Assembly: GCA_045659745.1 (NCBI GenBank)
Contig: JAZRCL010000089.1
Span: 2,252-66,251 of the forward strand
Direction of reading: 5' to 3'
DNA: 64,000 nt
From: Eubacteriales bacterium
GTDB lineage: Bacteria > Bacillota > Clostridia > Oscillospirales > CAG-272
Position numbers and translations under genes: made by a program. Shown here one piece after another: positions 2,377-50,271 of this stretch. Positions within the stretch are counted from its first letter, which is position 1, and each line of letters begins with the position of its first letter. The notes under the pieces were generated by a model. It was not told where the DNA came from. It worked only from the letters and a program-made list of their open reading frames with translations, and did no database searches.

Positions 2377-3033
2377 TTACTCTGCTGCCTCGGTGTTGTT
2401 TTCAACAACTTCCTCGGAGTACTCGTGGTAAGCGGAGATGTAGCCGTATTCGTAAGGCTGATCCTCACTTACTGTGAGCTTGATCTTGTACCAGCCCTCT
2501 TCGCCAAGGTCAGCGTTGAAGCCTACTACCTCAACCTCGTTGCCTTCAACGAGAGTAGCGATGGGCTCGTCAGCTGTTCTTGCGGGAACGTATCTTACGT
2601 TAACAGATCCAACTATGATCTTGATGGTCTTGGAGGTTTCCTCAAAGCCGTCAAGAACGTCTACCTCAACGATAAGCTTGTTAGCGATGTAGTATTCCTC
2701 ACCCTCGTAAGTTACCTTACTCCAGTTTGCATCAGCCTGGCTTCTTTCAAGCTCTGTGCCGTTGGGGAGAGAAATGCCTGCTTTTGCATCATCCTCAAAG
2801 GATGTGTCCGTGCGGAGATTTGCTGCACCGTTGGGAGTCATTATGTATACTGTATCGTTCTTGTCTTCAAAATTGCGGTCAACTGCGGGAGTGTTGTCCT
2901 CGGGAGGAGTTTCTACGCCTCCGTTACCTGTAGGAATATTAATGTCGGGATCTTCATTGCCCTGGTCGTTGTTGCAAGCAACGAGAGAGATCATAACGAG
3001 AAGAGCTGCTAAAATAACGAGAATTTTTTTCAT
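2377..3033 (-). CDS. Lipoprotein with SH3b-like domains
   Basis: The signal peptide ends in a lipobox (LVAC). Two SH3b-like segments are present (ANLRTD...; VNVRYVP...WYKI). RBS aggagg lies upstream. Confidence 0.7.
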   Translation of the reverse strand: MKKILVILAALLVMISLVACNNDQGNEDPDINIPTGNGGVETPPEDNTPAVDRNFEDKNDTVYIMTPNGAANLRTDTSFEDDAKAGISLPNGTELERSQADANWSKVTYEGEEYYIANKLIVEVDVLDGFEETSKTIKIIVGSVNVRYVPARTADEPIATLVEGNEVEVVGFNADLGEEGWYKIKLTVSEDQPYEYGYISAYHEYSEEVVENNTEAAE

Positions 3034-3120
3034 GGGTTCCTCCTGATTTCACATCATTTATTTTTACGGTTTTTGGCGTTCGACAAGACTCGTCAAAAGC
3101 CACTTTACAATCTATAAATT

Positions 3121-3276: not shown

Positions 3277-5805
3277 ATGAAAAAATTACTTTGCATTGAC
3301 GGAAACAGCATATTGAACAGACAGTTTTACGGCATAAGATACCTGTCAGCCAAGGACGGATTTCCTACAAATGCGCTTTTCGGACTTATAAACGTAATAT
3401 CAAGAGAGATAGACTCGCTCTCACCCGACTACGCAGCGGTGGCATTCGACCTTAAGGCTCCCACCTTCAGACATAAGATGTACGATGCGTACAAGGCGGG
3501 CAGACACGCTACTCCCGAGGCACTTCTTATGCAGATGCCTCCCGCAAAGGATATCTGTCGTGCTATGGGATTTTCCGTGCTTGAGCTGGAGGGCTACGAG
3601 GCGGACGATATTCTCGGTACGCTTGCGGCTATGGCAGAGCAGGCGGCGGCAGACGGCGAAGAGATAGAGGCGTATATCCTCACGGGAGATAAGGACTCCT
3701 TGCAGCTTATATCCCAAAACGTCAAGGTGCTTTTGGCGTCAAATTCCGAGACGACGGTTTATGACGATGCGAAATTTCTTGAAAAATACGGTGTCCACGC
3801 AAAACAGTACGTGGACGTAAAATCCATAATGGGCGACAGCTCGGACAATATCCCAGGCGTTAAGGGAATTGGCGAGAAGGGTGCGTTCAAGCTTATTGCG
3901 GAGTCTGGAAGTCTTGATGCTATTTATGAAAATCTCGACGGCATCAACGCAACTCAAAGCGTAAAGACAAAGCTTATAGACGGCAAGGAATCTGCGTATA
4001 TGTCTCGCACTCTTGCAACTATAAAAAAGGACGTTCCGCTTGGAATAACACTTAAGGATATTGAATTTTGCGGGATCCGCCGCGAGGACGCAAAAAGGCT
4101 TTTCACAAGATACGAGATGTTTGCCGCGCTCAAAAAATACGGACTTGACAGGGAAGAGGATACAGCCGAGGTTGAATCTGCGAGCGCAGAGATAAAGAGT
4201 GTAAAAATATCGGATGTTCTCTCTCTTGAAGGTGACGAATATGCCTTTGAGCTTTGCGGTGAGGAGATATTAGTGTCTGACGGCAAAACTGTTTGGAGTG
4301 CCGAATTTTCTGCGGAAATTTTCGACTTTTTGAACTCTAAAAAGATTGTTGCTTACGACTGCAAGACCTTGTATAAATCCCTTGAGGCGAAAGGCATTGT
4401 TTGGCGCGACTGCTTCTTTGACGTAATGCTCGGCGCGTATGTTGACGACTCATCGCAGGGTAATTACGGTATAGAGCGTCTCTGTACCCACTACCTTGGA
4501 GAAACTCTCTCCGAGAGCACACCGCAGGTATGGTATATCGCGAGAATGAAGTCCGTAATTGAAGAAAGCCTCACGCAGAGCGGTCAGATAACACTTCTTC
4601 GCGAGATAGAAATGCCGCTTGCGAGCGTTCTTTGCAATATGGAACAGAGGGGCGTTAAAGTGGACTGCAAGGGAATTGCTGAGTACGGTGAGCAACTTGA
4701 CAACAGCGCCGCCGTGCTTGAGACCATGATATATGCGGCGTCGGGCTATCAGTTCAACATTAACTCCCCAAAACAGCTTGGCGAGGTACTATTTGATAAA
4801 CTTATGCTTCCTTTTGCGAAAAAGACAAAGACGGGATATTGCACTAATGCCGAAACCCTTGAAAAGCTCCGCAAATATCACCCGATAATAGACGATATAC
4901 TGGACTACAGACAGGTGACAAAGCTCAAGAGCACGTACGTTGACGGACTGCTTCGCGAGGCTGACGCCGAGAGCAGAATACACACCACATTCAAGCAGAC
5001 GGGAACTGCCACGGGCAGACTTTCCTCAACCGACCCCAACCTCCAGAATATTCCGATAAGAACCGAGGCGGGCAGACAGTTCAGAAAGTACTTTGTGCCT
5101 ACCGACGAAAACCACGTGCTTATAGACGCGGACTATTCTCAGATAGAACTTCGCGTGCTTGCTCATATTTCCGACGATAGACATATGATAGACGCATTCC
5201 TTGGCGACGAGGATATACACACCTCCACGGCTTGCCGTGTGTTTGGAGTCACCCCCGACGACGTGACTATCGAGATGCGAAAGAGGGCAAAGGCAGTAAA
5301 CTTTGGAATCCTTTACGGCATGGGCGAATTTTCACTTTCCGAGGACCTAAAGATTTCCATCGCAAAGGCAAAGGAATATATACAAAACTACCTTGACAGC
5401 TATCCGAATATAGAAAAATATCTTTCGGACGTTGTAAGAGAGGCAAAGGAAAACGGCTACGTGACAACTATGTTCGGTCGCAGACGAAACATCCCCGAGC
5501 TTTCCGCGCAGAACAAGAACGTGCAAAAGTTTGGCGAGAGAATCGCGATGAACAGCCCGATTCAGGGAAGCAGCGCGGACATTATCAAGATCGCTATGAT
5601 AAACGTTGAGCGCAAGCTCGTCGAGAGCGGCACGGGCGCGCGACTTATTCTGCAGGTGCACGACGAGCTCCTCATTGAATCTCCCGTGGAATGTGCGGAC
5701 GAGGTTTTGCTGATTCTCAAATCAGAAATGGAGGCTGCGGCAAAGCTTTCGGTTCCGCTTGATGTTGAAGCGAAGATTGGCAGAACGTGGTACGAATGTC
5801 ACTAA
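3277..5805 (+). CDS. polA: DNA polymerase I
   Basis: 842 aa. It has an N-terminal 5'-3' exonuclease (GDSSDNIPGVKGIGEK) and C-terminal family A polymerase motifs (DYSQIELRVLAH, RRRAKAVNFGILYG-like, QVHDELL). Confidence 0.95.
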   Translation: MKKLLCIDGNSILNRQFYGIRYLSAKDGFPTNALFGLINVISREIDSLSPDYAAVAFDLKAPTFRHKMYDAYKAGRHATPEALLMQMPPAKDICRAMGFSVLELEGYEADDILGTLAAMAEQAAADGEEIEAYILTGDKDSLQLISQNVKVLLASNSETTVYDDAKFLEKYGVHAKQYVDVKSIMGDSSDNIPGVKGIGEKGAFKLIAESGSLDAIYENLDGINATQSVKTKLIDGKESAYMSRTLATIKKDVPLGITLKDIEFCGIRREDAKRLFTRYEMFAALKKYGLDREEDTAEVESASAEIKSVKISDVLSLEGDEYAFELCGEEILVSDGKTVWSAEFSAEIFDFLNSKKIVAYDCKTLYKSLEAKGIVWRDCFFDVMLGAYVDDSSQGNYGIERLCTHYLGETLSESTPQVWYIARMKSVIEESLTQSGQITLLREIEMPLASVLCNMEQRGVKVDCKGIAEYGEQLDNSAAVLETMIYAASGYQFNINSPKQLGEVLFDKLMLPFAKKTKTGYCTNAETLEKLRKYHPIIDDILDYRQVTKLKSTYVDGLLREADAESRIHTTFKQTGTATGRLSSTDPNLQNIPIRTEAGRQFRKYFVPTDENHVLIDADYSQIELRVLAHISDDRHMIDAFLGDEDIHTSTACRVFGVTPDDVTIEMRKRAKAVNFGILYGMGEFSLSEDLKISIAKAKEYIQNYLDSYPNIEKYLSDVVREAKENGYVTTMFGRRRNIPELSAQNKNVQKFGERIAMNSPIQGSSADIIKIAMINVERKLVESGTGARLILQVHDELLIESPVECADEVLLILKSEMEAAAKLSVPLDVEAKIGRTWYECH

Positions 5806-5945: not shown

Positions 5946-7106
5946 ATGGAAACAGTAAAAAAATATCTGAAACGTTATTTTATTGATGCCATGGGCGCTA
6001 TGGCGCTGGGACTTTTCGCATCGCTTCTTATCGGTACTATATTTGGCACGGTAGGCAAGTATATAAACGGCGCAAATGTAAGCCATGAATTTCTGAAATC
6101 TCTTGCGGAGATCTTCAACGTCGTGGCAACTTATGCAAAGGCGGCAACGGGCATGGCGATAGGTGTTGCCATCGCACACAAGCTTGGAGCTCATCCGCTT
6201 GTTATGTTCTCCTGTGCGGCAGTTGGCGCTATGTCAAACGCTATGGGTGCTGTTATAAACGGTGGCGTGATAACCAAATGGGCGGCAACGGCAGGAGTTG
6301 GCGAGGGAATATTCTACGCAGCAGGTCCTGCGGGCGCGTTTTTTGCGGTAATTATCGCATGCGAGATAGGAATGCTCGTATCCAAAAAGACAAAGATAGA
6401 TATTCTCGTAACCCCCGTTGTGACCCTCACGGTAGGATTTTTGGCAAGCTTCTTGCTTTGTCCCTTGGTGTCTTACGTAATGTATTATCTTGGCGTGTTT
6501 ATCGCTACTGCGACCACGTTCCAGCCCTTGCTTATGGGTATAGTGGTTTCGGTGGTTGTTGGAATAATACTCACACTACCCATATCCAGCGCGGCCATAT
6601 GCGCTATGATATTCTCGACGTCGGCGTTTGAGGCGGCGGTAGCAAACGGTACAGAAGAAGGATTTTTGCTCGCAGGCGGTGCGGCGGTCGCAGGCTGTTG
6701 CGCACAGATGGTGGGCTTTGCAGTGTCAAGCTTCCGCGAAAACAAGTGGGGCGGCATTGTGTCACAAGGACTCGGTACGTCAATGCTTCAGATGGGCAAC
6801 ATTGTGAGAAATCCGAGAATATGGATACCTCCAACGCTTGCGGCGGCTATCACGGGGCCCATCTCGACTATGGTGTTTGGTCTTAAATGTCAAGGAGTTG
6901 CGGCAGGTATGGGAACGTGCGGTCTTGTAGGTCCTCTCGGCGTTATTGACCAGATGGCGACGGACGGACAGATGAATGACCCTATGGCATGGATTGGACT
7001 TGTGCTTGTTTGCATAGTTCTTCCTGCAAGTTTGTCGCTTTTGTTCAGCGAAATAATGAGAAAGCTCGGTTGGATAAAGAAGGACGATATGCTTTTGGGG
7101 GAGTGA
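5946..7106 (+). CDS. Polytopic membrane protein, PTS EIIC_2-like putative permease
   Basis: 386 aa, about 10 TM segments, glycine-rich. Its resemblance to stand-alone EIIC-type permeases is from memory only, and there is no IIA/IIB partner in the window. Confidence 0.5.
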   Translation: METVKKYLKRYFIDAMGAMALGLFASLLIGTIFGTVGKYINGANVSHEFLKSLAEIFNVVATYAKAATGMAIGVAIAHKLGAHPLVMFSCAAVGAMSNAMGAVINGGVITKWAATAGVGEGIFYAAGPAGAFFAVIIACEIGMLVSKKTKIDILVTPVVTLTVGFLASFLLCPLVSYVMYYLGVFIATATTFQPLLMGIVVSVVVGIILTLPISSAAICAMIFSTSAFEAAVANGTEEGFLLAGGAAVAGCCAQMVGFAVSSFRENKWGGIVSQGLGTSMLQMGNIVRNPRIWIPPTLAAAITGPISTMVFGLKCQGVAAGMGTCGLVGPLGVIDQMATDGQMNDPMAWIGLVLVCIVLPASLSLLFSEIMRKLGWIKKDDMLLGE

Positions 7107-7107
7107 A

Positions 7108-7443
7108 ATAAATGATTTTTTTAGATACTTTTTGTCCGCGTCGACAAAAAGTATCCAAAAAACGCCGCTTAAAAGGGAAGGGTGTTGTAATTTTTCTACC
7201 GAAAAATTTGCTCTGCGAGCATCGAACGACCCCCTTCCCCTTTAAGAATACCCTAACCCCGCGAGTTTGCAAGCAAACTCGAAAAACGGTGAGGTAATAG
7301 AATATCCGTCCTAACTGTAATAAACGTTTACAGAGTAGGCGTTTGTGTAGGATAGGAGTCAAGAGGAAAGGGAGGAATCGCAACCTCCCTTTCCTCTTGT
7401 GGCTTTCTTTGGATACTTTCTGCAGCTATTGGCAGAAAGTATC
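7108..7443 (+). repeat. Multi-hairpin intergenic element, copy A (family shared with 49150-49420)
   Basis: Terminal hairpins lie at 7124-7155 and 7412-7443, both of the form GATACTTT..AAAGTATC. A long hairpin spans 7168-7246, with further hairpins at 7262-7281 and 7360-7399. Copy A shares an identical 22-mer (7188-7209), 20-mer (7370-7389) and 13-mer (7108-7120) with copy B. Confidence 0.7.
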
Positions 7444-7579
7444 ATAAAAGATAGACACTCTCCACTCTTAAGCGGTGTTTTGGTTACGAATTGCATTTCG
7501 CAGAAATGCGAGCTGAAGCGTAGCGCAAGCAGTTGGCACTGTTGACAAAGTAACATAGAAAAAATATTTCAAAAAGCCC

Positions 7580-7608
7580 TTGAAACTTTGCGTCCTTTCT
7601 GCTATAAT
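7580..7608 (+). promoter_or_regulatory. Sigma-A-type promoter for SRP RNA
   Basis: TTGAAA (7580-7585), 17 nt, TATAAT (7603-7608). Confidence 0.65.
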
Positions 7609-7654: not shown

Positions 7655-7932
7655 AAGAAGGCCATACCAGCCGGGGAGGTAGCGGAGCCCTGAACCTGAA
7701 ATCCGCTATACAGGGGTGGATCCCGCATTTGAGGGCGGACCCTTTACGAATGAGGCATATCTGTTGTGTTGATGGGCGGGTCTTGCGCAATCAAGAGCTG
7801 TGAATCATGTCAGATGGGGAACCAAGCAGCATTAAGCGGTAAACTTGATGTGCCGTGAGGTTGCCTGCCTTGAGCAGGAGGTATGCAGATCGCGTGGAGG
7901 GAAAACACGAATTTGCGGTGTATGGTCTTCTT
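7655..7932 (+). ncRNA. ffs: Signal recognition particle RNA, long Bacillus-type (scRNA) with Alu domain
   Basis: Blocks match my recollection of B. subtilis scRNA: ggggaggtagcgg.gccctg.acctg.aatccgct, ctgcgcaat, catgtcag..gg.a..aagcagcattaag, and gtgccg..ggttgcctg. A terminal helix pairs 7655-7667 with 7920-7932. The position upstream of dnaX is the conserved Firmicute synteny. Confidence 0.85.
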
Positions 7933-9992: not shown

Positions 9993-10592
9993 ATGGCAGA
10001 GTACATAGAGTCGCTTCAAAGACTCGCCGAGCAGTTTGGGCGTCTTGAGGGTGTAGGCAAGAAAAGCGCTATGAGAATGGCGTTTTCGGTGCTTGATATG
10101 TCCGACGAGGACGCGAAAATGCTCGCGCTTTCAATAGTTGAGGCCAAAGAAAGAATACACCTTTGTCCCATATGCCAGAACATAACCGACAGAGATACAT
10201 GTCTCGTCTGCGCGGACGAGGCCAGAGACAAGAGCGTAATTTGCGTTGTCTCCGATCCCAAGGCAGTTATTTCTATGGAAAAGGTAAGGGAATACAAGGG
10301 AGTTTATCACGTGCTTGGCGGAGTTATCTCGCCCATGAACGGAATTACCCCTGATAAGCTCAAAATAAAGGAGTTGCTTATGCGTCTTTCAAACGAGGAC
10401 GTAAAGGAGGTCATAGTTGCCACTAACCCCACAGTCGAGGGCGAGGCGACTGCGATGTATCTATCGAGAATTCTCAAACCCCTTGGTGTTAAGGTGTCAA
10501 GACTTGCATACGGAATTTCCGTAGGAGCTGACATTGAGTATGCCGACGCGGTGACGCTTAACCGCGCACTTGAGGGCAGAAGGGAAATATAA
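9993..10592 (+). CDS. recR: Recombination protein RecR
   Basis: 199 aa. It has a helix-hairpin-helix (LPGVG-like GVGKKSA), a C4 zinc finger CPICQN..CLVC, and a Toprim domain. Confidence 0.95.
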   Translation: MAEYIESLQRLAEQFGRLEGVGKKSAMRMAFSVLDMSDEDAKMLALSIVEAKERIHLCPICQNITDRDTCLVCADEARDKSVICVVSDPKAVISMEKVREYKGVYHVLGGVISPMNGITPDKLKIKELLMRLSNEDVKEVIVATNPTVEGEATAMYLSRILKPLGVKVSRLAYGISVGADIEYADAVTLNRALEGRREI

Positions 10593-10593
10593 T

Positions 10594-10630
10594 AAAAAAT
10601 GACGGAGAATCATTCTCCGTCATTTTTTAT
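10594..10630. terminator. Bidirectional terminator between recR and the DUF4097 gene
   Basis: Stem atgacggagaat/attctccgtcat flanked by an A-run and a T-run. Confidence 0.85.
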
Positions 10631-10652
10631 TATGCCGCAGGGCATTTCATTT

Positions 10653-26705: not shown

Positions 26706-26727
26706 GCTGGTATGGCTCAGTCGGTAG
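26706..26727 (+). pseudogene. Duplicated 5' fragment of tRNA-Thr (acceptor 5' strand plus D arm)
   Basis: The 22 nt gctggtatggctcagtcggtag are identical to 26784-26805. The two copies are separated by a 56-nt insert containing an accacc-ttcg-ggtggt hairpin. Confidence 0.7.
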
Positions 26728-26783
26728 TTTCACCACCTTCGGTGGTTTCGCGCTACCTCGTTGCGCCACACCACTCATACTTC

Positions 26784-26859
26784 GCTGGTATGGCTCAGTC
26801 GGTAGAGCACGTCATTGGTAATGACGAGGTCATCAGTTCGATTCTGATTACCAGCTCCA
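26784..26859 (+). tRNA. tRNA-Thr (anticodon GGU) with encoded CCA
   Basis: I folded the cloverleaf by hand. It has acceptor GCTGGTA/TACCAGC, D arm GCTC..GAGC, anticodon stem CGTCA/TGACG with loop TTGGTAA, T arm ATCAG-TTCGATT-CTGAT, and a discriminator T followed by CCA. Confidence 0.93.
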
Positions 26860-26860
26860 A

Positions 26861-26896
26861 AGCACCTATGCGAATGCGTAGGTGCTTTTGTGTTTA
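26861..26896 (+). terminator. Rho-independent terminator after tRNA-Thr
   Basis: An 11-bp stem agcacctatgc/gcgtaggtgct with loop gaat, followed by ttttgtgttt. Confidence 0.85.
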
Positions 26897-26898
26897 TA

Positions 26899-27114
26899 TA
26901 TGGCTCAGTCGGTAGAGCACGTCATTATACGTTCGCTTCGCTCACTAATCGAGTTTGCTTTGCAAACATCGGGTAAGGACGACATACGTTCGCTGCGCTC
27001 ACTGCCGCGAGTTTGCTACGCAAACGTCGTCATACGTTCCCTCGCTATGCTCGCTCACTGCCGCGAGTTTGCTACGCAAACATCGGTCACAGGTTCGATT
27101 CTGATTACCAGCTC
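26899..27114 (+). pseudogene. Disrupted second tRNA-Thr copy
   Basis: Homology to the intact tRNA runs from position 6 to U33 (tatggctcagtcggtagagcacgtcatt) and resumes at the variable/T arm (ggtcacaggttcgattctgattaccagctc). The 5' acceptor strand is missing and the T stem is mutated. The anticodon region is replaced by 162 nt of tandem repeats. Confidence 0.7.
26927..27088 (+). repeat. Three tandem 48-57-nt hairpin repeats inside the tRNA-Thr pseudogene
   Basis: The units span 26927-26983, 26984-27031 and 27032-27088. Each begins atacgttc and carries gcgagtttgc-N3-gcaaac. The same module (cgagtttgcaagcaaactcg) occurs in element copy A at 7262-7281. Confidence 0.8.
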
Positions 27115-27117
27115 AAA

Positions 27118-27153
27118 AGCACCTATGCAAATGCGTAGGTGCTTTTGTGTTTA
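27118..27153. terminator. Second copy of the tRNA terminator; also positioned to terminate the convergent ylbJ
   Basis: Stem agcacctatgc/gcgtaggtgct with loop aaat, with a T-run downstream on the plus strand and an A-run upstream. Confidence 0.8.
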
Positions 27154-28230
27154 TTTCCTTTTCTGCACCGCCATCGCCAGAAGCGGTAGAGCCGCACTTA
27201 TAAAAAACAAAATGCAGATATAGAGTCCGTAGCTTCCAAATGATATATCGCTCAACGTCGGGGCGGACGGGCTGATGGACACGGAAAAAAATTTAAGCAA
27301 AATAAAACATATAATCGCGCATAATACACCCTGCAAAAGCTTTTGGAGAACAAAGGCTTTTTTTCTTATGTGTCTGCCGCGGTCAAGCGATATTATCTGA
27401 AAAATGACCGATAGTCCCGAAAATCCCGCAAAAAACGCCGCAAGTATGGGCGAAATATTACCGCCAAGCCCTGCCGCGAAGGACATTCCGTTTGATATTT
27501 CAAGCAATCCTGAAAGTATCACGGGTATAATTTTCGGCGCGCCAATTATATCGCACAGGCGGGTAGCGTACCCGATAAGCACCGAGAAAAAGACCACGTA
27601 TCCGCACACCGTCAGCATAACTGCCGCAGACGAGGACACCGCGCCTGTGAATGCATTCACCGCGTCGGTGTTTTTTTGCGATACAAAGATGGCTTTGCGG
27701 TTGTATTTATATATAAACCTACCCGTTATTCCCAAAATGCACGAGGACAAAATAAGCGAGACAAAGAGAATTATTCCAAGACGCGAGCTTTGAAAAAGCA
27801 GTCCCACCGCGCCGCACACAAATGCGGGAGAGGGTATATTGCAAAAGCTCATTATGTGACTAAGCTCGGTGTGGTTTATTTTGTTTTCCTCGTATAGCTT
27901 GAGCGCGCTTTTAGCTCCTATAGGGAAACCGCATAAAAATCCCAGCAAAACCGCAAACGATCCCTCGCGCGACGTGCCGAAAACAAAGCTCAAGGGTCTT
28001 GAAAACAGGGCTTTCAGAATTTTTCCAGTGTCGCTTGAAATCAGAAAATCCGAAATTATCATAAAGGGAAAAAGCGAGGGGACAAGGCTTTGCACGCATA
28101 GTTTGAGCGAGCCCCTCATATACTCAAAGGAAACTGCGGGGGAGATTAGCAACAGCACGAGCAAAAAAAGCACCAATATAGGCAAGGGTGACACCCGTCT
28201 GCCTGTTTTTTTGAGAACTGTTTTTTGCAT
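27151..28230 (-). CDS. ylbJ: Sporulation integral membrane protein YlbJ-like (nucleoside-recognition domain)
   Basis: It is a polytopic protein with an N-terminal block LKLCVQSLVPSLFPFMIISDFLI, as in YlbJ. I chose the start at 28230 (MQKTV) because it follows the RBS aaggtg; the ORF-track start is 28245. Confidence 0.8.
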   Translation of the reverse strand: MQKTVLKKTGRRVSPLPILVLFLLVLLLISPAVSFEYMRGSLKLCVQSLVPSLFPFMIISDFLISSDTGKILKALFSRPLSFVFGTSREGSFAVLLGFLCGFPIGAKSALKLYEENKINHTELSHIMSFCNIPSPAFVCGAVGLLFQSSRLGIILFVSLILSSCILGITGRFIYKYNRKAIFVSQKNTDAVNAFTGAVSSSAAVMLTVCGYVVFFSVLIGYATRLCDIIGAPKIIPVILSGLLEISNGMSFAAGLGGNISPILAAFFAGFSGLSVIFQIISLDRGRHIRKKAFVLQKLLQGVLCAIICFILLKFFSVSISPSAPTLSDISFGSYGLYICILFFISAALPLLAMAVQKRK

Positions 28231-33825: not shown

Positions 33826-33864
33826 AAAGGCTCATTTTTATTGAAAATAAACAACCGAAAAACT

Positions 33865-33939
33865 GTAGGGCGGGGGCTTGCTCCCGCCGAAAAGAGAATT
33901 TCGTTTTGATGAAACGGCGGGAGTAAACCCCCGCCCTAC
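33865..33939. repeat. REPIN-like inverted doublet of a GTAG-headed 25-nt palindromic unit
   Basis: gtagggcgggggcttgctcccgccg (33865-33889) faces its inverted copy cggcgggagtaaacccccgccctac (33915-33939), which matches 23/25. Each unit is itself GTAG plus an 8-bp hairpin. Together they form a hairpin of about 21 bp. Confidence 0.75.
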
Positions 33940-34047
33940 ATCTCCATTATGTATTTGCAACAAAAGGGCGAACCCGACGGAAAAACGGAATGATAAATAA
34001 GAATTTGACGAAAAGTAAAATCAATCGACGGCGAAAGGAGTTATCTT

Positions 34048-34545
34048 ATGGAACAATATATTTATGAAAATATAACAGGGATTTCGTGTCCAGTTGGTGA
34101 GTTTAGCGTATGTTTTGGGAAGAGTAAAATTCCTTTCAGTATTCGGAAAAACAGCTACGATATTCCGTATTATGATATTACCACAGAGACCAACTATGCT
34201 TTGGATATAGACATCAATCTTTTGGAAATAAACAAACAATACAATGTTGTATTTTCCGAGGGCGGTTTGCGTTTTCAATGCTCGGATGAACACACAAAAT
34301 CGCTTACTAACACTATTGGCAAGTGGTCTGTAGGTATTGGTTCGTTTGATATGAACGATGACTGTTTCCATCAAGACGAGCAATACAAAGGATATGACGT
34401 GTGGCAATCTGAAGACAATTTTGGTTTTTCCTTTGTTCTTTTAGATAGAACGATAGAAAAGATTACTTTTCTCATTGCGTGGATTGAAAATGTACCAAAT
34501 ATAAACATCGATTACGAAGATGCTTTAGGTTTTTGGCTTACATAA
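34048..34545 (+). CDS. Hypothetical cytoplasmic protein (orphan, AT-rich)
   Basis: 165 aa. It has RBS aaaggag and its own terminator, with no TM segment and no signal peptide. I recognise no motif. Confidence 0.55.
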   Translation: MEQYIYENITGISCPVGEFSVCFGKSKIPFSIRKNSYDIPYYDITTETNYALDIDINLLEINKQYNVVFSEGGLRFQCSDEHTKSLTNTIGKWSVGIGSFDMNDDCFHQDEQYKGYDVWQSEDNFGFSFVLLDRTIEKITFLIAWIENVPNINIDYEDALGFWLT

Positions 34546-34574
34546 ACAAATTCCAATTTGTCAAACAGAGTGAA

Positions 34575-34618
34575 AACCCCGACAGACTAAAAAATCTGTC
34601 GGGGTTAATTATTTGTTT
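34575..34618 (+). terminator. Rho-independent terminator of the orphan ORF
   Basis: Stem aaccccgacaga/tctgtcggggtt followed by a T-rich tract. Confidence 0.7.
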
Positions 34619-34619
34619 G

Positions 34620-34644
34620 CGGCGGGAGCAAGCCCCCGCCCTAC
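34620..34644. repeat. REP-like singlet, perfect inverted copy of 33865-33889
   Basis: cggcgggagcaagcccccgccctac is the exact 25/25 reverse complement of 33865-33889. Confidence 0.75.
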
Positions 34645-34657
34645 GTTATCTGATTTA

Positions 34658-35131
34658 TTATCTTCTTCTGCGGCGTCTTTTGCCTGAGCTTGATAAGGAT
34701 TTTGCTCCCAAAAATGAGCCTGCTGCACAACAGAGAATGAGAAGCCCTCGCAATGCAAAAAACCAGAGAGTCGAGAGCGAGCCCGCGTTGGTTGAGGGAA
34801 GCAGGGGATATAGCACCATAGAAACCACGATGTTCATAAGGGCAAATATCACACCGCAGAGCACGGGACTGCCGCGGTATAATTTACAGCTCATAAATCC
34901 CCCGAAAATCGCGCTAGGGAAGCACAAAAATGACGCGATGGGGAGCAAAAATCCCTCGGGGTCGGGTCTTGTGAGCGCAAAAACCGCAAGAATACTTAAC
35001 ATTAAAACAGCCGCTGCAAATGATACCAGCAGTCCGCAGGTGCATGCCCTGATTGCGGTAATAAGAGATACGTCGTTTTCATTTTCACTATGTCTGCCGC
35101 GGTGCGCGGAATGTTTTCTTTTTGTGTCCAT
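34658..35131 (-). CDS. Small polytopic membrane protein (TIGR04086/YrzE-like) with poly-Arg tail
   Basis: 157 aa with 4 TM segments and a C-terminal RRRRRR. Its position downstream of yajC matches my recollection for TIGR04086 proteins in Clostridia. Confidence 0.55.
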   Translation of the reverse strand: MDTKRKHSAHRGRHSENENDVSLITAIRACTCGLLVSFAAAVLMLSILAVFALTRPDPEGFLLPIASFLCFPSAIFGGFMSCKLYRGSPVLCGVIFALMNIVVSMVLYPLLPSTNAGSLSTLWFFALRGLLILCCAAGSFLGAKSLSSSGKRRRRRR

Positions 35132-35196
35132 AAAAAAACCTCCGAATATATATTTTCCACAACTCTGGTAAAATATATGTACTCGAAGGCTTTTTT
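35132..35196. terminator. Imperfect AT-rich hairpin with T-runs on both strands between yajC and the downstream membrane gene
   Basis: Arms 35139-35156 and 35170-35189 pair with 3 mismatches. On the minus strand the hairpin contains ggagg and is followed by TTTTTTT and then the ATG. Confidence 0.45.
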
Positions 35197-46326: not shown

Positions 46327-49157
46327 TGGCAAAACAGATTACTATAAGAGGAGCGAGGGTACACAACCTCAAAAATATTGACGTGGATATACCGCGTGAC
46401 AAGCTCGTTGTGCTTTCGGGACTGTCGGGAAGCGGCAAGTCGTCGCTTGCCTTTGACACGGTCTACGCCGAAGGACACAGACGATTTGTGGAGTCACTCT
46501 CGAGCTATGCGAGAATGTTTCTCGGTCAGCTGGACAAGCCCGACGTGGATATTATTGAAGGACTTTCTCCGTCAATCTCCATAGACCAGAAAACAACGTC
46601 GAAAAACCCCCGTTCCACAGTCGGAACGGTGACTGAAATATACGACTATCTGCGTTTGCTCTATGCCAGAATTGGCGTGCCACACTGTCCTGTCTGCGGC
46701 AAGGAGATAAGACAGCAGAGCGTTGACCAGATAATTGAGCGCGTGACAGCACTCCCCGATGGTGAGAGATTTATGATACTCGCACCCGTTGTTCGAGCGC
46801 AAAAGGGAATGCACGAAAAGGTGCTGTCCGACGCAAAAAAGAGCGGATATGCGCGTGTGAGAATTGATGGCAGTATTTACGACTTGTCCGAAGAAATAAA
46901 GCTTGACAAGAACAAAAAGCATTCCATAGAGATAGTGGTTGACCGTCTTGTTATGAAGGACGGAATACGCTCGCGTCTTGCTGATTCTGTAGAGAGCGCG
47001 CTTTCGGCGGCAGACGGACATCTGCTCGTCGTCACGCTTCCCAGAGACGGTAGCGAGGGCGAGGAATTGAGCTTTTCGCAGTCTTATGCCTGCGAGGAGC
47101 ACGGTATATCCGTCGGCGAGCTTGAGCCGAGAATGTTCTCATTTAACAACCCGCAGGGAGCTTGCCCACACTGTTCGGGACTTGGCGACACAAGACGAAT
47201 CGCGCTGGATAGGGTTATACCTGATAAGTCTTTGTCACTGCGCGAGGGTGCGATAAACGTAAACGGATTCAAGAGCCTTGAGGACGAGAGTTGGAACGGA
47301 CCGCTTTTCTCGGCGGTCGGTGAAAAATTTGGATTTGACCTCAACACTCCAGTAAAGGACTTTTCGGATAAGGCTTATGACGTACTGATGTACGGAAGCG
47401 GCGTGGAAAAATACGACGTCGTAAGATATTTCGGCGGCGAGGCGCACAGACGTCTTGCATCGTTTGACGGCGTAATCCCCATGATCGAGCAGAGAATGGC
47501 AATGGGTATGGCTGCGGAATATTACGAGCAGTTTGTTGAAGAAGCACCCTGTGCGTACTGCCATGGACAAAGACTCAACCCGCTTTCGCTTGCGGTGACT
47601 GTCGGCGGCATAAATCTGCACGAGTTCTGCACAATGTCGGTTGAAAAGGAGCTTGAGTTTGTAAATAACCTCACCCTGACTGAGACCGAGCAGGAAATAT
47701 CCCGCGAGATACTCAAGGAGATAAGAGCAAGGCTTGGCTTCCTTGTCAGCGTTGGACTCGAGTATCTCACACTCTCGCGTAAAGCGGGAACACTCTCGGG
47801 AGGTGAAGCGCAGAGAATAAGACTTGCCACACAGATAGGATCATCTCTTGTTGGCGTGCTTTATATACTTGACGAGCCAAGTATCGGACTCCATCAGAGA
47901 GATAACTCCAAGCTCATAGCAACGCTCAAACGCTTACGCGATATAGGAAATACAGTTATCGTAGTTGAGCACGACGAGGAGACTATGGAGGAGTCGGATT
48001 ATATAGTTGACATTGGCCCCGGCGCGGGAATCCACGGCGGTCACGTGGTCGCCGCGGGTACTCCCGACGAGGTAAAAAACAATCCCCAGTCTATCACAGG
48101 CGCATATCTGTCGGGCAGAAAAAAGATAGAAATTCCCCAAAGCAGACGCGAGGGCAACGGTAATTTTCTGACCGTCAAGGGCGCTTGTCACAATAATCTT
48201 AAATGTATTGACGTGGATATTCCGCTTGGCAAATTCGTTTGCGTGACGGGTGTTTCGGGCTCGGGTAAATCCTCGCTTGTAAACGGCATAATTTATCCCA
48301 AGCTCGCGCACGAACTCAACCGCGCTATTTCTTATCCGGGCAAGAACAATGGGGTTGAAGGACTTGAAAAACTTGACAAGGTCATTTGTATAGATCAGAG
48401 CCCTATAGGACGTACGCCGCGCTCAAACCCTGCAACATACACGGGGCTGTTCACGGACATACGCGACCTTTTTGCGCAGACCAAGGATGCAAAGGCGAAG
48501 GGTTATAGTGCAGGCAGATTTTCCTTTAACGTAAAGGGCGGCAGATGCGAAGCCTGCGAGGGCGACGGCGTAAAGTGCATCGAGATGCACTTCTTGCCTG
48601 ACGTTTATGTGACCTGCGACGTCTGCAAGGGAAAGAGATACAACCGCGATACCCTTGAGGTAAAATACAAGGGCAAAAATATCTTTGATGTGCTTGATAT
48701 GACAGTCGAGGAGGGAATACCCTTCTTTGACGGACTTCCCAAGATTCAGCGCAAGCTACAGACACTTTACGACGTTGGACTTGGATACGTAAAGATAGGA
48801 CAGTCGTCAACGACCTTGTCCGGTGGCGAGGCGCAGAGAGTAAAGCTTGCGACAGAACTTTCAAAGCGTAGCACGGGTAAGACTATTTATATACTTGATG
48901 AGCCCACCACGGGACTCCATACGCATGACGTTGCAAAGCTTTTGGAGGTGCTAAACCGCATCTGCGACGGCGGAAATACCGTGCTTGTAATTGAGCATAA
49001 TCTTGACGTAATAAAAACCGCAGACCATATCATCGACCTCGGTCCCGAGGGAGGTGACGGAGGTGGAACAGTCGTTGCCACTGGTACGCCCGAGGAGGTT
49101 GCAAGAGTACAAGGCTCTTATACCGGTCAGTATTTGAAGAAGATATTGGATAAATGA
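46326..49157 (+). CDS. uvrA: Excinuclease ABC subunit A
   Basis: 943 aa. It has two ABC modules ([23 protein letters not shown], and LSGGEAQR twice) and zinc fingers. Confidence 0.97.
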
Positions 49158-49420
49158 TTTTTATGATACTTTGTCAATAGCGACAAAGTATCCAAAACGC
49201 CACTTAGGAAGGGGAGGATGTCCTAATTTTTCTACCGAAAAATTTTTGCTTTGCAAAACGGACGACCCCCTCGCCCTTCCTAAGAACCATCCCCACCCCA
49301 GCGCGCCTTCGGCGCTAAGCGTTTGTGTGGGTGGGTTTCAAAAGGGCGGGAGGAATCGCAACCTCCCCCCCTTTGCGGCGGTTTTTGCTATACTTTTTGG
49401 CGCTGTTGCCAAAAAGTATA
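49150..49420 (+). repeat. Multi-hairpin intergenic element, copy B
   Basis: Terminal hairpins lie at 49165-49192 and 49389-49420. A long hairpin spans 49203-49284, and another lies at 49339-49375. Copy B shares the 13-mer (49150-49162), 22-mer (49224-49245) and 20-mer (49348-49367) with copy A. Confidence 0.7.
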
Positions 49421-49500
49421 AATATAAAACGAAAAACTTATAGACACACAAGCAAAAAAGTGCTATAATTACCTTGATAAAAAACAAATAGGAAACCAAA

Positions 49501-50271
49501 ATGCTCAACTCCTACCATAACCACACATGCCGCTGCAACCACGCAAGCGGAAGTGAAAGAGAATTCATTGAAAAGGCTATTGCCTCGGGCATAAAAACTC
49601 TCGGCTTTTCCGACCACGCGCCTATGCCGTTTGAAGACGGATACTACTCGCACTTCCGTATGAAACTCAATGAAACAGACGGATATATCAAAACCCTTGA
49701 GGCCCTGCGCGATGAATACAAAAACGATATAAAAATTCATATCGGCTTTGAAGCAGAATACTATCCCGAAATATTCCCCCGAATGATAGAATTTCTATCA
49801 GACTACCCATACGAGTATCTCATTCTCGGTCAGCACGCGCTTGGCAACGAGCAAAACGACCACTACTGCTCAAGAAAAACCACCGACAAAACACATCTGT
49901 CGCGCTACGTTGACCAAGTGATAGAAGGATTTTCAACAGGGCATTTTATCTATATCGCCCACCCCGATATATTGAATTATGTGGGTGACGATGACTTTTA
50001 CAGAGCCGAGATGAGCCGACTTTGCAAGTCAGCAAAGGAGAATGATATACCTCTTGAAATAAATATTCTCGGTATGCGCGAGGGCAGAAATTATCCCAAT
50101 TTTGAGTTCTGGAAAATAGCCGCAGAGCATGGCTGTACTGCAATCCTCGGTCAAGACGCACACCACGTACCCGACGTCACAGCTCCTGAAACCGAGCAAA
50201 GAGCAATAGAGCTTGCACGTCAAGTCGGAATAAATATAATTCAGTCCCTCGAGGACAGATTGGAAAAATAA
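49501..50271 (+). CDS. PHP-family histidinol-phosphatase (HisJ-like)
   Basis: 256 aa. It has an N-terminal H.H motif (SYHNHT), GFSDHAP and further metal-binding His/Asp motifs of the PHP fold. Confidence 0.8.
   Translation: MLNSYHNHTCRCNHASGSEREFIEKAIASGIKTLGFSDHAPMPFEDGYYSHFRMKLNETDGYIKTLEALRDEYKNDIKIHIGFEAEYYPEIFPRMIEFLSDYPYEYLILGQHALGNEQNDHYCSRKTTDKTHLSRYVDQVIEGFSTGHFIYIAHPDILNYVGDDDFYRAEMSRLCKSAKENDIPLEINILGMREGRNYPNFEFWKIAAEHGCTAILGQDAHHVPDVTAPETEQRAIELARQVGINIIQSLEDRLEK

Follow-up and report, generated by a model that had tools for sequence, protein, structure and literature searches.

Mosaic palindromic repeats at gene ends of uncultured Clostridia, probably acting as DNA rather than as an RNA gene

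The spacer following the phosphotransferase system (PTS) EIIC gene in a 64-kb stretch of a Eubacteriales genome (contig JAZRCL010000089.1; the whole stretch is below called the window) holds an ordered series of five hairpins, H1–H5, which returns about 42 kb further on, directly behind uvrA. The question raised by the locus is whether the two copies, A and B, are a folded structure of fixed order kept by selection, possibly an RNA, as an initial annotation had them, or a repeat that behaves as DNA. The interpretation given here, with a probability of about 0.6, is that A and B belong to a family of non-coding mosaic palindromic repeats that act as DNA, in the manner of repetitive extragenic palindromes (REPs), bacterial interspersed mosaic elements (BIMEs) and miniature inverted-repeat transposable elements (MITEs), and that they are not an RNA gene. 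The observed behaviour of the family comprises insertion and absence, persistence, inversion in place, exchange of arms and inserts, and maintained hairpin potential. Judged by the libraries, the element has not been described before. It is a non-coding DNA variant of the structured interspersed intergenic repeats, and it was filed as such a variant because each named family either fails in a defining feature or stays undecided.

Altogether 12 copies at about seven distinct sites were found in the DNA inspected, which consisted of the window and about 200 kb of related loci (about 260 kb altogether), some of them fetched via UvrA and DnaX homologues. Two copies each are present in the window, L005 and L044, and single copies in L003, L004, L031, L039, L042 and L043, so that the further copies in relatives that the initial annotation had called for do exist. 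The density was two copies per 64 kb in the window, two per 20 kb in L044 and two per 8 kb in L005. Each element is 0.27–0.40 kb long and non-coding; the open reading frames (ORFs) inside it are not conserved between copies, and indels in A1 disrupt the frame. The element forms a large imperfect palindrome composed of two inverted arms of 50–130 bp and a variable centre between them, the centre being flanked by C-rich and G-rich segments. It is nearly symmetric, both strands folding alike, and the full-length copy in L005 (1305–1700) is one single large imperfect palindrome. The outermost bases are often TA·TG...CA·TA.

When read from the outside inwards, 17 arms share a common layout: a T-run, a TTAT/CTAT foot, a terminal palindrome, a spacer and a long hairpin. 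The terminal palindrome is perfect and 11–13 bp long, with the core ACTTT/AAAGT and an asymmetric loop of 6–8 nt, usually AAYAGC; as measured for the comparison with REPs, the stems were 10–13 bp and the loops 6–8 nt. Left and right palindromes are mutually inverted as judged by the loop (AAYAGC versus GCTRTT), and the partners lie 250–330 bp apart. The foot is TTAT/CTAT in 12 of the 21 arms and YTCT in five, and it precedes G(A/T)NAC. The spacer is CAAAAAACGCC (consensus CAAA(A/G)AACGCC), with its A-run paired with the outer T-run. The long hairpin, purine-rich on its 5' side and pyrimidine-rich on its 3' side, comes in three interchangeable types, by which the arms were sorted. Type I is a three-way junction with a 4-bp junction helix, in which the first inner hairpin carries the 22-mer core and the second is variable; type II is a long variant of the arm hairpin; and type III is a simple hairpin with the loop TTGCGATT, of which H4 is the same type on the other strand. 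The arms are combined as I+III in copies A and B, the first copy of L005 and L031, as I+I in L003 and the second copy of L005, as I+II in L004, as III+II in L039, as III+I in L042 and L043, and as III+III in L044. The five hairpins of the initial annotation are present in the window at 7108–7443, and in the same order in copy B from H1 (49165–49192) to H5 (49389–49420), but instead of one RNA with a fixed five-hairpin order they represent the left palindrome, left arm, centre, right arm and right palindrome of such an element.

Copy B (49158–49430), which has the same hairpin order as copy A and 76% overall identity to it, begins immediately 3' of the uvrA stop codon TGA (49155–49157). The gap between uvrA and the following PHP-family gene is 343 bp in the window and contains copy B, a promoter and a ribosome-binding site. 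In L035, L036 and L037, with UvrA 89–90% identical and the same flanking gene order, the uvrA stop is situated 2–3 bp before the PHP-family ATG, and in L038 the gap is 62 bp and lacks the element. Because uvrA abuts the next gene in three relatives, copy B is read from these junctions as an insertion that is missing at the same place in the relatives. The earlier opinion that the copies reflect selection rather than copy-paste did not hold in this respect, since copy B is absent in relatives and the modules are common to copies and species. In L039 (UvrA 93% identical) the junction is filled, there with a type III arm on the left and a type II arm on the right, roughly reversed in comparison to copy B; the orientation reversal at this site is weaker than at site A. 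The sigma-70-like promoter lies at 49441–49469 on the + strand (TAGACA-17-TGcTATAAT, 11 of 12 matches), before the PHP-family ATG at 49501. It is conserved in L039 and missing where uvrA and the PHP gene abut, and apparently the insertion turned a translationally coupled uvrA–PHP pair into two transcription units. The idea that the right flank of copy B and the promoter had been copied from the promoter of the signal recognition particle (SRP) RNA was unconvincing, as only the short shared blocks CATAGAAAAAA and TGCTATAAT align.

Site A, the position of copy A, is occupied also in L042 and L043 (DnaX 91% identical) and in L044 (85%), and in all of these an element with unchanged outer boundaries separates the EIIC stop codon from the SRP RNA promoter. 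The flanks are 84–87% identical in the EIIC gene and 92–96% identical on the SRP/dnaX side. H1 (loop CGCGTC) and the spacer are identical between the window and L042 and nearly so in L043, and across the site H1 and its flank keep the same orientation at 90–94% identity. What follows the spacer is a type I arm in the window and a type III hairpin in L042 and L043. When the L043 interior is reverse-complemented, the window interior (7167–7400) aligns to it with 78.4% identity over 218 nt (score 164), while the match in the same orientation is limited to 64.6% over 79 nt (score 16), and the centre of copy A is the reverse complement of the centres of both L043 and L042. By this comparison the interior of site A is inverted in place.

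Among three orthologous comparisons only site A gives a well-supported true inversion of the interior. At the locus shared by L004 and L005, a 96%-identical palindrome with its type I arm is present on opposite sides, the flanks being 81–84% identical; the arms are swapped there, and the centre aligns equally well in both orientations. Arm type and orientation thus differ at orthologous sites in all three cases (copy A against L043 and L042, copy B against L039, and L004 against L005), and the fixed orientation and arm type implied by the initial annotation had to be given up. The rearrangements are unlikely to be assembly artefacts, because the inverted repeats are imperfect and shorter than the assembly k-mers.

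L031 (1–830) shares 98–100% identity with the window from 7400 on, as against about 85% in 7108–7399, and upstream it has a PFOR gene with a terminator and not the EIIC gene. Either two element copies have recombined here, or the scaffold is a chimera whose join falls within the element. Its interpretation as a strain-level orthologue of copy A was dropped, the divergence being confined to 7108–7399 and the upstream gene being different; also a symmetric deletion between near-identical strains was dropped, since L031 is not orthologous to copy A. The left part of L031 was counted as a separate copy.

The predicted folding was very stable in both copies (A −140.5 kcal/mol, z = −12.8; B −118 kcal/mol, z = −9.5, in comparison to shuffled sequences). 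Covariation was analyzed from an alignment of 11 type I junctions with a hand-written structure, including 34 pairs and 340 cells. Standard pairs were present in 95% of the cells, and changes on both sides were found in 18 of the 34 pairs (45 cells), a level reached by none of the 500 column shuffles and compared with 0–5 in the slid controls. The covariation concerned all four helices, the 4-bp junction helix included (19/69, 21/67 and 22/66). In the terminal palindromes, the outer three base pairs occurred in at least nine versions and the inner part in many, all of them complementary and with only two G.T pairs. The initial annotation was therefore right in that the loops are conserved while the stems change on both sides and still pair. 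Also the stem differences which it quoted between A and B are correct for H1 (tttttgtc/gacaaaaa versus tttgtc/gacaaa) and H2 (cttaaaaggg versus cttaggaagg); for the enclosing helix, cccaccc/gggtggg of copy B is correct, but cctaacc/ggatagg of copy A has a central A.A mismatch.

G-U pairs were found in only two of the 340 cells, and one-sided changes were almost absent. RNA helices are usually not so poor in G-U pairs and one-sided changes, G-U commonly making up several per cent in RNA families, and the covariation is in this respect not of the RNA-like kind that had been supposed. Template switching in quasi-palindromes can copy one half of a palindrome from the other. The near-absence of G-U fits either pairing of DNA strands or such copying of one palindrome half from the other. 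Furthermore, the same stem variants recur across copies and species, as H4 GAGAGG/CCTCTC in L005, L031 and L039, and part of the covariation consequently represents exchange of whole modules and not independent double mutation.

The named systems closest to the element are the REP dimers, BIMEs and REPINs (Bachellier 1994; Bertels & Rainey 2011, PMC3116915; Di Nocera 2013, PMC3733652; Quentin 2018, PMC6006769). With them it shares an inverted pair of short terminal palindromes that can be folded into one large hairpin, a mosaic of interchangeable motifs whose stems vary yet stay complementary, a conserved tetranucleotide at the 5' foot of the hairpin, structured spacers, the supply of stop codons, persistence at orthologous sites, and an extragenic location at gene 3' ends where the stop codon is sometimes touched, as has been described for REPs (PMC3733652). 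It differs from them in that its tag is TTAT/CTAT instead of GT[AG]G or CGTC, its palindromes are AT-rich, and its partners are 250–330 bp apart with large structured modules between them, the usual distance for REPs being 20–100 bp. Also no REP-associated tyrosine transposase (RAYT) flanked by palindromes of the element was found in L042 or L045–L049.

Mobilization strictly of the HUH/Y1 type, by which the element would be either a REP dimer (REPIN or BIME) moved by a RAYT or a palindrome-associated transposable element (PATE) derived from IS200/IS605 and moved as single-stranded DNA by a Y1 transposase bound to the terminal hairpins, is conceivable but judged unlikely. The end palindromes do form an inverted doublet, the TTAT/CTAT foot stands at the position of the REP 'guide', no obvious target duplication is seen, and TGAT precedes the left T-run in six of the nine copies, as a preferred tetranucleotide might, although in several of these the TGA is the stop codon of the upstream gene. 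Also REP dimers with long structured spacers and REPs supplying stop codons have been documented (PMC3733652). A further point in favour is that L042, a close relative (DnaX 91% identical), encodes a RAYT. Hairpins near both ends, the lack of coding capacity and the absence of an obvious target duplication are features which the element has in common with the IS200/IS605 PATEs.

Terminal inverted repeats are lacking in the IS200/IS605 family, the members of which are strand-asymmetric; the element studied here, by contrast, has long inverted arms and is nearly symmetric. No tnpA or tnpB with these ends and no match to the Rfam IS605-orfB or omega-RNA-type families was found in the DNA inspected. 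As the initial annotation proposed, the element is non-coding and looks non-autonomous, but its identity as an IS200/IS605-type PATE is not established in view of the long terminal inverted repeats. The search for a Y1 transposase gave no transposase or recombinase among the 30 window ORFs scanned, and one protein in the relative L042, where a 1.1-kb insert (4585–5742) between recR and a DUF4097 gene encodes a protein of 165 aa. This protein is a RAYT (83.9 bits against the NCBIfam cut-off of 80) and matches also Pfam Y1_Tnp; its gene contains in frame two inverted GTAGGGGCGGAT...-type REP-like sequences, and an ORF of 126 aa lies downstream. The convergent recR and DUF4097 genes of the window are 60 bp apart, and a perfect 22+22-nt palindrome (10589–10633) fills the space.

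The homologues of the L042 RAYT are numerous, mostly on contigs of 0.7–2 kb. The flanks and even the coding regions of the RAYT gene in L042 and of the homologues in L045–L049 carry GC-rich palindromes tagged with GTAG, as described for RAYT subclass 2.4 (PMC6006769), and no GATAC-type palindrome was found near any of them in the DNA inspected. The element itself has no GT[AG]G tag. Since the RAYT has a more obvious cognate family in the GTAG REPs, its link to copies A and B is only a lead, and the L042 RAYT was rejected as a demonstrated partner of the element.

GTAG REPs are present also in the window. A doublet is situated at 33864–33940 in the spacer downstream of RecO (TGTAGGGCGGGGGCTTGCTCCCGCCG, 25 nt, CGGCGGGAGTAAACCCCCGCCCTACA), and a third such REP is found 0.7 kb away at 34616–34644, inside or adjoining the ORF 34533–35171. 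Judged by their sequences these look like canonical RAYT-type REPs, a second repeat family unrelated to A and B, and like the family cognate to the RAYT.

A classical MITE origin, by internal deletion from a DDE-type insertion sequence whose transposase would recognise the terminal inverted repeats in double-stranded DNA, is improbable. It would account for the small, non-coding form with long terminal inverted repeats (in copy A 52 nt with 71% complementarity, 7400–7450 inverting 7115–7166), for the insertion polymorphism of the uvrA–PHP junction, which is empty in L035–L037 and filled in the window and L039, and for the ends, which are compatible with TG/CA termini and a duplication of TA. 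However, the termini are perfect palindromes with co-varying halves, for which the binding of a DDE transposase has no need, the TA flank, although present at many ends, is lacking in several copies (L031, L039 and L042–L044), no related insertion sequence was found, and no copy in the inspected DNA carries an ORF. The Correia elements of Neisseria are MITEs with structured terminal inverted repeats that can terminate or start transcription. The element resembles such MITEs in being non-autonomous and intergenic, with terminal inverted repeats and possibly TA at the ends, and differs from them in its perfect co-varying terminal palindromes and in that no clear target duplication and no parent insertion sequence were found in the DNA inspected. 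The flanks of L003 and L043 show repeated AT-rich 6–9-mers, possibly by chance.

The ERIC/IRU repeats of enterobacteria and the bcr1-type repeats of the Bacillus cereus group are imperfect palindromes of 0.1–0.2 kb in transcribed intergenic regions. They have in common with the element the presence/absence polymorphism, inserts at fixed internal positions and paired changes that keep the hairpins. The element is two to three times larger, with nested palindromes and a branched hairpin in each arm, it has three exchangeable arm types, and there is no sequence similarity to these repeats, which are reviewed in PMC3184786.

More doubtful still is a structured RNA selected at the RNA level, such as a 3'-untranslated region (3'-UTR) element, a terminator or stabiliser module, or a small RNA. 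The folding z-scores are very strong, every type I junction helix covaries, and the copies lie 0–10 nt after stop codons or just 3' of intrinsic terminators, all of which speaks for such an RNA. In copy A, moreover, H4 with the T-run scores as a terminator. Against it stand the varying orientation and arm type at orthologous sites, the near symmetry by which both strands fold alike, the scarcity of G-U pairs and one-sided changes, and the missing copy B in close relatives. The single mismatches in the arm-sense direction (A.C in five, G.T in two and other in six cases, including a recurrent T.C) gave no clear strand signal. Rfam, searched with the whole window at the gathering threshold, returned only SRP RNA, T-box and tRNA and nothing in either copy, and the region 7000–7600 at E values up to 10 gave only microRNA-type noise of at most 24 bits; the earlier view, which recognised no Rfam family in the element, stands. 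The 22-mer was also considered as a CodY box (AATTTTCWGAAAATT) and rejected because of wrong spacing.

The weakest alternative, a site-specific invertible switch in which a tyrosine recombinase would turn the interior round by acting on the palindromes as lox-like core sites, is very improbable: the geometry of the sites fits (inverted binding arms of 11–13 bp around an asymmetric spacer of 6–8 bp, opposed at the ends), arm types or interior are rearranged in all three orthologous comparisons, and as in an inverton a segment flanked by inverted repeats is seen in either orientation when genomes are compared (at site A, and less strongly at site B), but the two spacers are unequal in most copies (in copy A CGCGTC versus CAATAGCT), which would prevent strand exchange, the binding arms are variable and co-vary, both palindromes are perfect after inversion, so that the breakpoints would have to be inside them at the spacers, and neither a promoter in the invertible part nor a recombinase among the scanned window ORFs was found.

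Several points weigh against the interpretation as a mobile or recombining DNA repeat. No base-precise pair of empty and filled sites was found, the nearest empty site being about 10% diverged, and no clear target-site duplication was found when all ends were checked by eye. Neither a mobilising enzyme nor an autonomous relative with the same ends was present in the DNA inspected. The tally of copies is limited to about 260 kb of related DNA, and some of the data are metagenome scaffolds in which repeats may cause chimeric joins, as in L031. The minimum free energy of the RNA was slightly lower on the arm-antisense strand in 17 of the 20 arms, which would favour a structured RNA, this being a weak strand test. 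The terminator-like signal is weak and was flagged by a simple terminator scan in copy A only. Finally, the long persistence at site A together with the conserved loops and the recurrent T.C mismatch may point to a function for the host, for example in binding of RNA or protein.

As a DNA repeat of the REP/BIME/MITE kind, the element would be non-autonomous and moved or copied in trans by an enzyme recognising the folded single-stranded terminal palindromes, possibly in the manner of REP/RAYT or of an IS200-type HUH enzyme. Recombination or template switching between the inverted arms would produce the inversions, the swaps of modules, the homogenisation and some of the compensatory changes. 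A side effect may be that the GC-rich hairpin and the GGCGTTTTTTGG after it, at the far end of each strand, form a two-way transcription barrier or a 3'-end stabiliser; a transcription barrier would explain both why the element lies at gene ends and why a new promoter stands behind copy B. A bolder version, offered as a speculation that is unlikely to be correct, is that the element is the non-coding partner of an undescribed REPIN-like replicator in Firmicutes, its arms being recognised by a putative HUH enzyme or recombinase acting in trans. The terminal palindromes and branched arms (the three-way junction, with its invariant AATTTTTC-TACC-GAAAAATT hairpin and the conserved T.C mismatch) would then be the recognition modules of the folded single strand, and the putative enzyme would copy the element to new gene ends and flip it in place.

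Copy A extends from 7116 to 7450 and is followed by a remnant arm to about 7564; the hairpins are thus within the 7108–7443 originally given, but the T-run at 7116–7122 joins the palindrome, as it pairs with the A-run at 7157–7162, and repeat-derived DNA continues to about 7564, where it adjoins the −35 box of the SRP RNA promoter. The left end (7116–7167, + strand) consists of the T-run, H1 (GATACTTTTTGTC-CGCGTC-GACAAAAAGTATC, 7124–7155, with a perfect stem of 13 bp), the A-run and the spacer CAAAAAACGCCG. The type I arm follows at 7168–7246 (+ strand; covariance model match 96.5 bits). This is the long hairpin H2 of the initial annotation, present at that place and in reality a three-way junction: its outer stem CTTAAAAGGGAAGGG/CCCTTCCCCTTTAAG has 15 bp with one A.C mismatch, and its inner hairpins are AATTTTTC-TACC-GAAAAATT, the core of the 22-mer, and GCTC-TGC-GAGC. 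The centre (7247–7359) runs from the C-rich CCCTAACCCC to the G-rich GCGTTTGTGTAGGATAGG, enclosing a hairpin at 7261–7281 and a second hairpin. The type III hairpin H4 (7360–7399, + strand) has a perfect stem of 16 bp and the loop AATCGCAA, and is followed by TGGCTTTCTTTGG, with which it is terminator-like on the + strand. The right end (7400–7450, + strand) includes the spacer GGCTTTCTTTGG, the palindrome H5 (7412–7443; 12-bp stem, loop AGCTATTG) and CATAAAAG. The remnant (7454–7564) is a further type I arm on the − strand and has its orthologue in the right element end of L042, L043 and L044. It retains the long stem's 3' half (GACACTCTCCACTCTTAAG), the spacer CGGTGTTTTGG and the terminal palindrome GTTAC...GTAAC, which about 48 nt of inserted sequence split in two.

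In copy B, the left end (49158–49202, + strand) has the T-run, H1 with the loop AATAGC and the spacer CAAAACGCCA, and the type I arm H2 (49203–49284, + strand) is a three-way junction with the 22-mer, matching the covariance model with 84.1 bits. The centre is short (49285–49338) and consists of CCCCACCCC, the hairpin GCGCC-TTC-GGCGC and GCGTTTGTGTGGGTGGG. The type III hairpin H4 (49339–49375, + strand) has the same loop as in copy A, and the right end (49376–49430, + strand) includes the spacer CGGCGGTTTTTGC, H5 with the loop GCTGTT and an A-rich tail.

Nested inserts were observed within the elements. An insert of 40–48 nt (..GCATTTCTGCGAAATGC..GCTGAAGCG..) interrupts the terminal palindrome within its 3' half in three separate arms, at different sites and in different genomes (window 7488–7535, L003 about 7775–7825, and L044 about 795–835), and it holds a small co-varying hairpin (GCATTTC/GAAATGC versus GCATTTT/AAAATGC). 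At site A of L042 (1195–1290), the loop of the type III hairpin bears an extra insert of about 90 bp with a hairpin of its own (GCGCTTTTGTATACAAAAGCGC), which is a further case of nested insertion into the hairpin loops of the element.

As far as seen, only a narrow clade of uncultured Eubacteriales/Clostridia carries the family. The 22-mer TAATTTTTCTACCGAAAAATTT and the 20-mer GGGAGGAATCGCAACCTCCC, correctly reported as identical between the copies, occur exactly twice each in the window, once per copy, with zero occurrences expected. In a genome collection the 22-mer gave six matches, of which only three were related, from two metagenome-assembled genomes (MAGs) of Eubacteriales. The 24 matches of the 20-mer core in the JGI metagenomes were all limited to the seed and represent chance. 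Four scans of viral contigs gave either no matches or one chance match in a coding region, plasmid blastn gave no match, and phage blastn found only two matches of hairpin plus spacer, both in unverified human-faecal contigs. No copies were found in the four syntenic relatives L035–L038 or in L040 (about 90 kb; blastn and the type I junction covariance model), and the same model, applied to the window and to 21 related or fetched loci, added no arm to those already recognised. The relatives named in the protein search were MAGs of 'Clostridia bacterium' and 'Ruminococcaceae bacterium'. The gene content of the window is that of housekeeping DNA from a spore-former, with PolA, PTS EIIC, SRP RNA, dnaX–ybaB–recR, ValRS with a T-box, YabP/YqfD and uvrCBA. 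In the unverified human-faecal 'phage' contigs L033 (MT836407, about 2850–3060) and L034 (MT837065, 1–620), analogous units are located inside GC-richer repeats: an xxACTTT palindrome with the loop AAYAGC is followed by CAAAAAACGCC and then by a hairpin, and in MT837065 the units are tandem and about 470 bp long. These hint at a wider superfamily of such modules in gut Clostridia.

Apart from the element, the window has a duplicated tRNA region. The gene for tRNA-Thr(GGT) (26784–26859, within 26706–27154) is preceded by a 22-nt duplicate of its 5' end, and 3' of it there is a second tRNA-like copy, split after the anticodon stem by about 165 nt, in which a unit of about 56 nt bearing a CGAGTTTGC..GCAAAC hairpin occurs three times in tandem. 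A duplicate of the tRNA 3' half, together with the terminator, lies at 27085–27154, and ARAGORN calls only the intact tRNA.

Repeats of the REP, BIME and ERIC types are well studied in Proteobacteria and hardly described for the uncultured Clostridia that dominate gut metagenomes. The present family follows the course typical of such elements, with insertion into an operon junction, long persistence, inversion in place and exchange of modules, in an unusually large and branched form, and it stands out by having neither the usual GTAG tag nor an adjacent RAYT. Such repeats break or mis-join metagenome assemblies, of which L031 is a likely example, and they mimic structured RNAs in covariation screens, for which the near-absence of G-U pairs is a useful warning sign. 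They can also rewire transcription: copy B parts uvrA from the next gene, which now has a predicted promoter of its own. The mobilising enzyme, if found, could add a new hairpin-recognising DNA enzyme.

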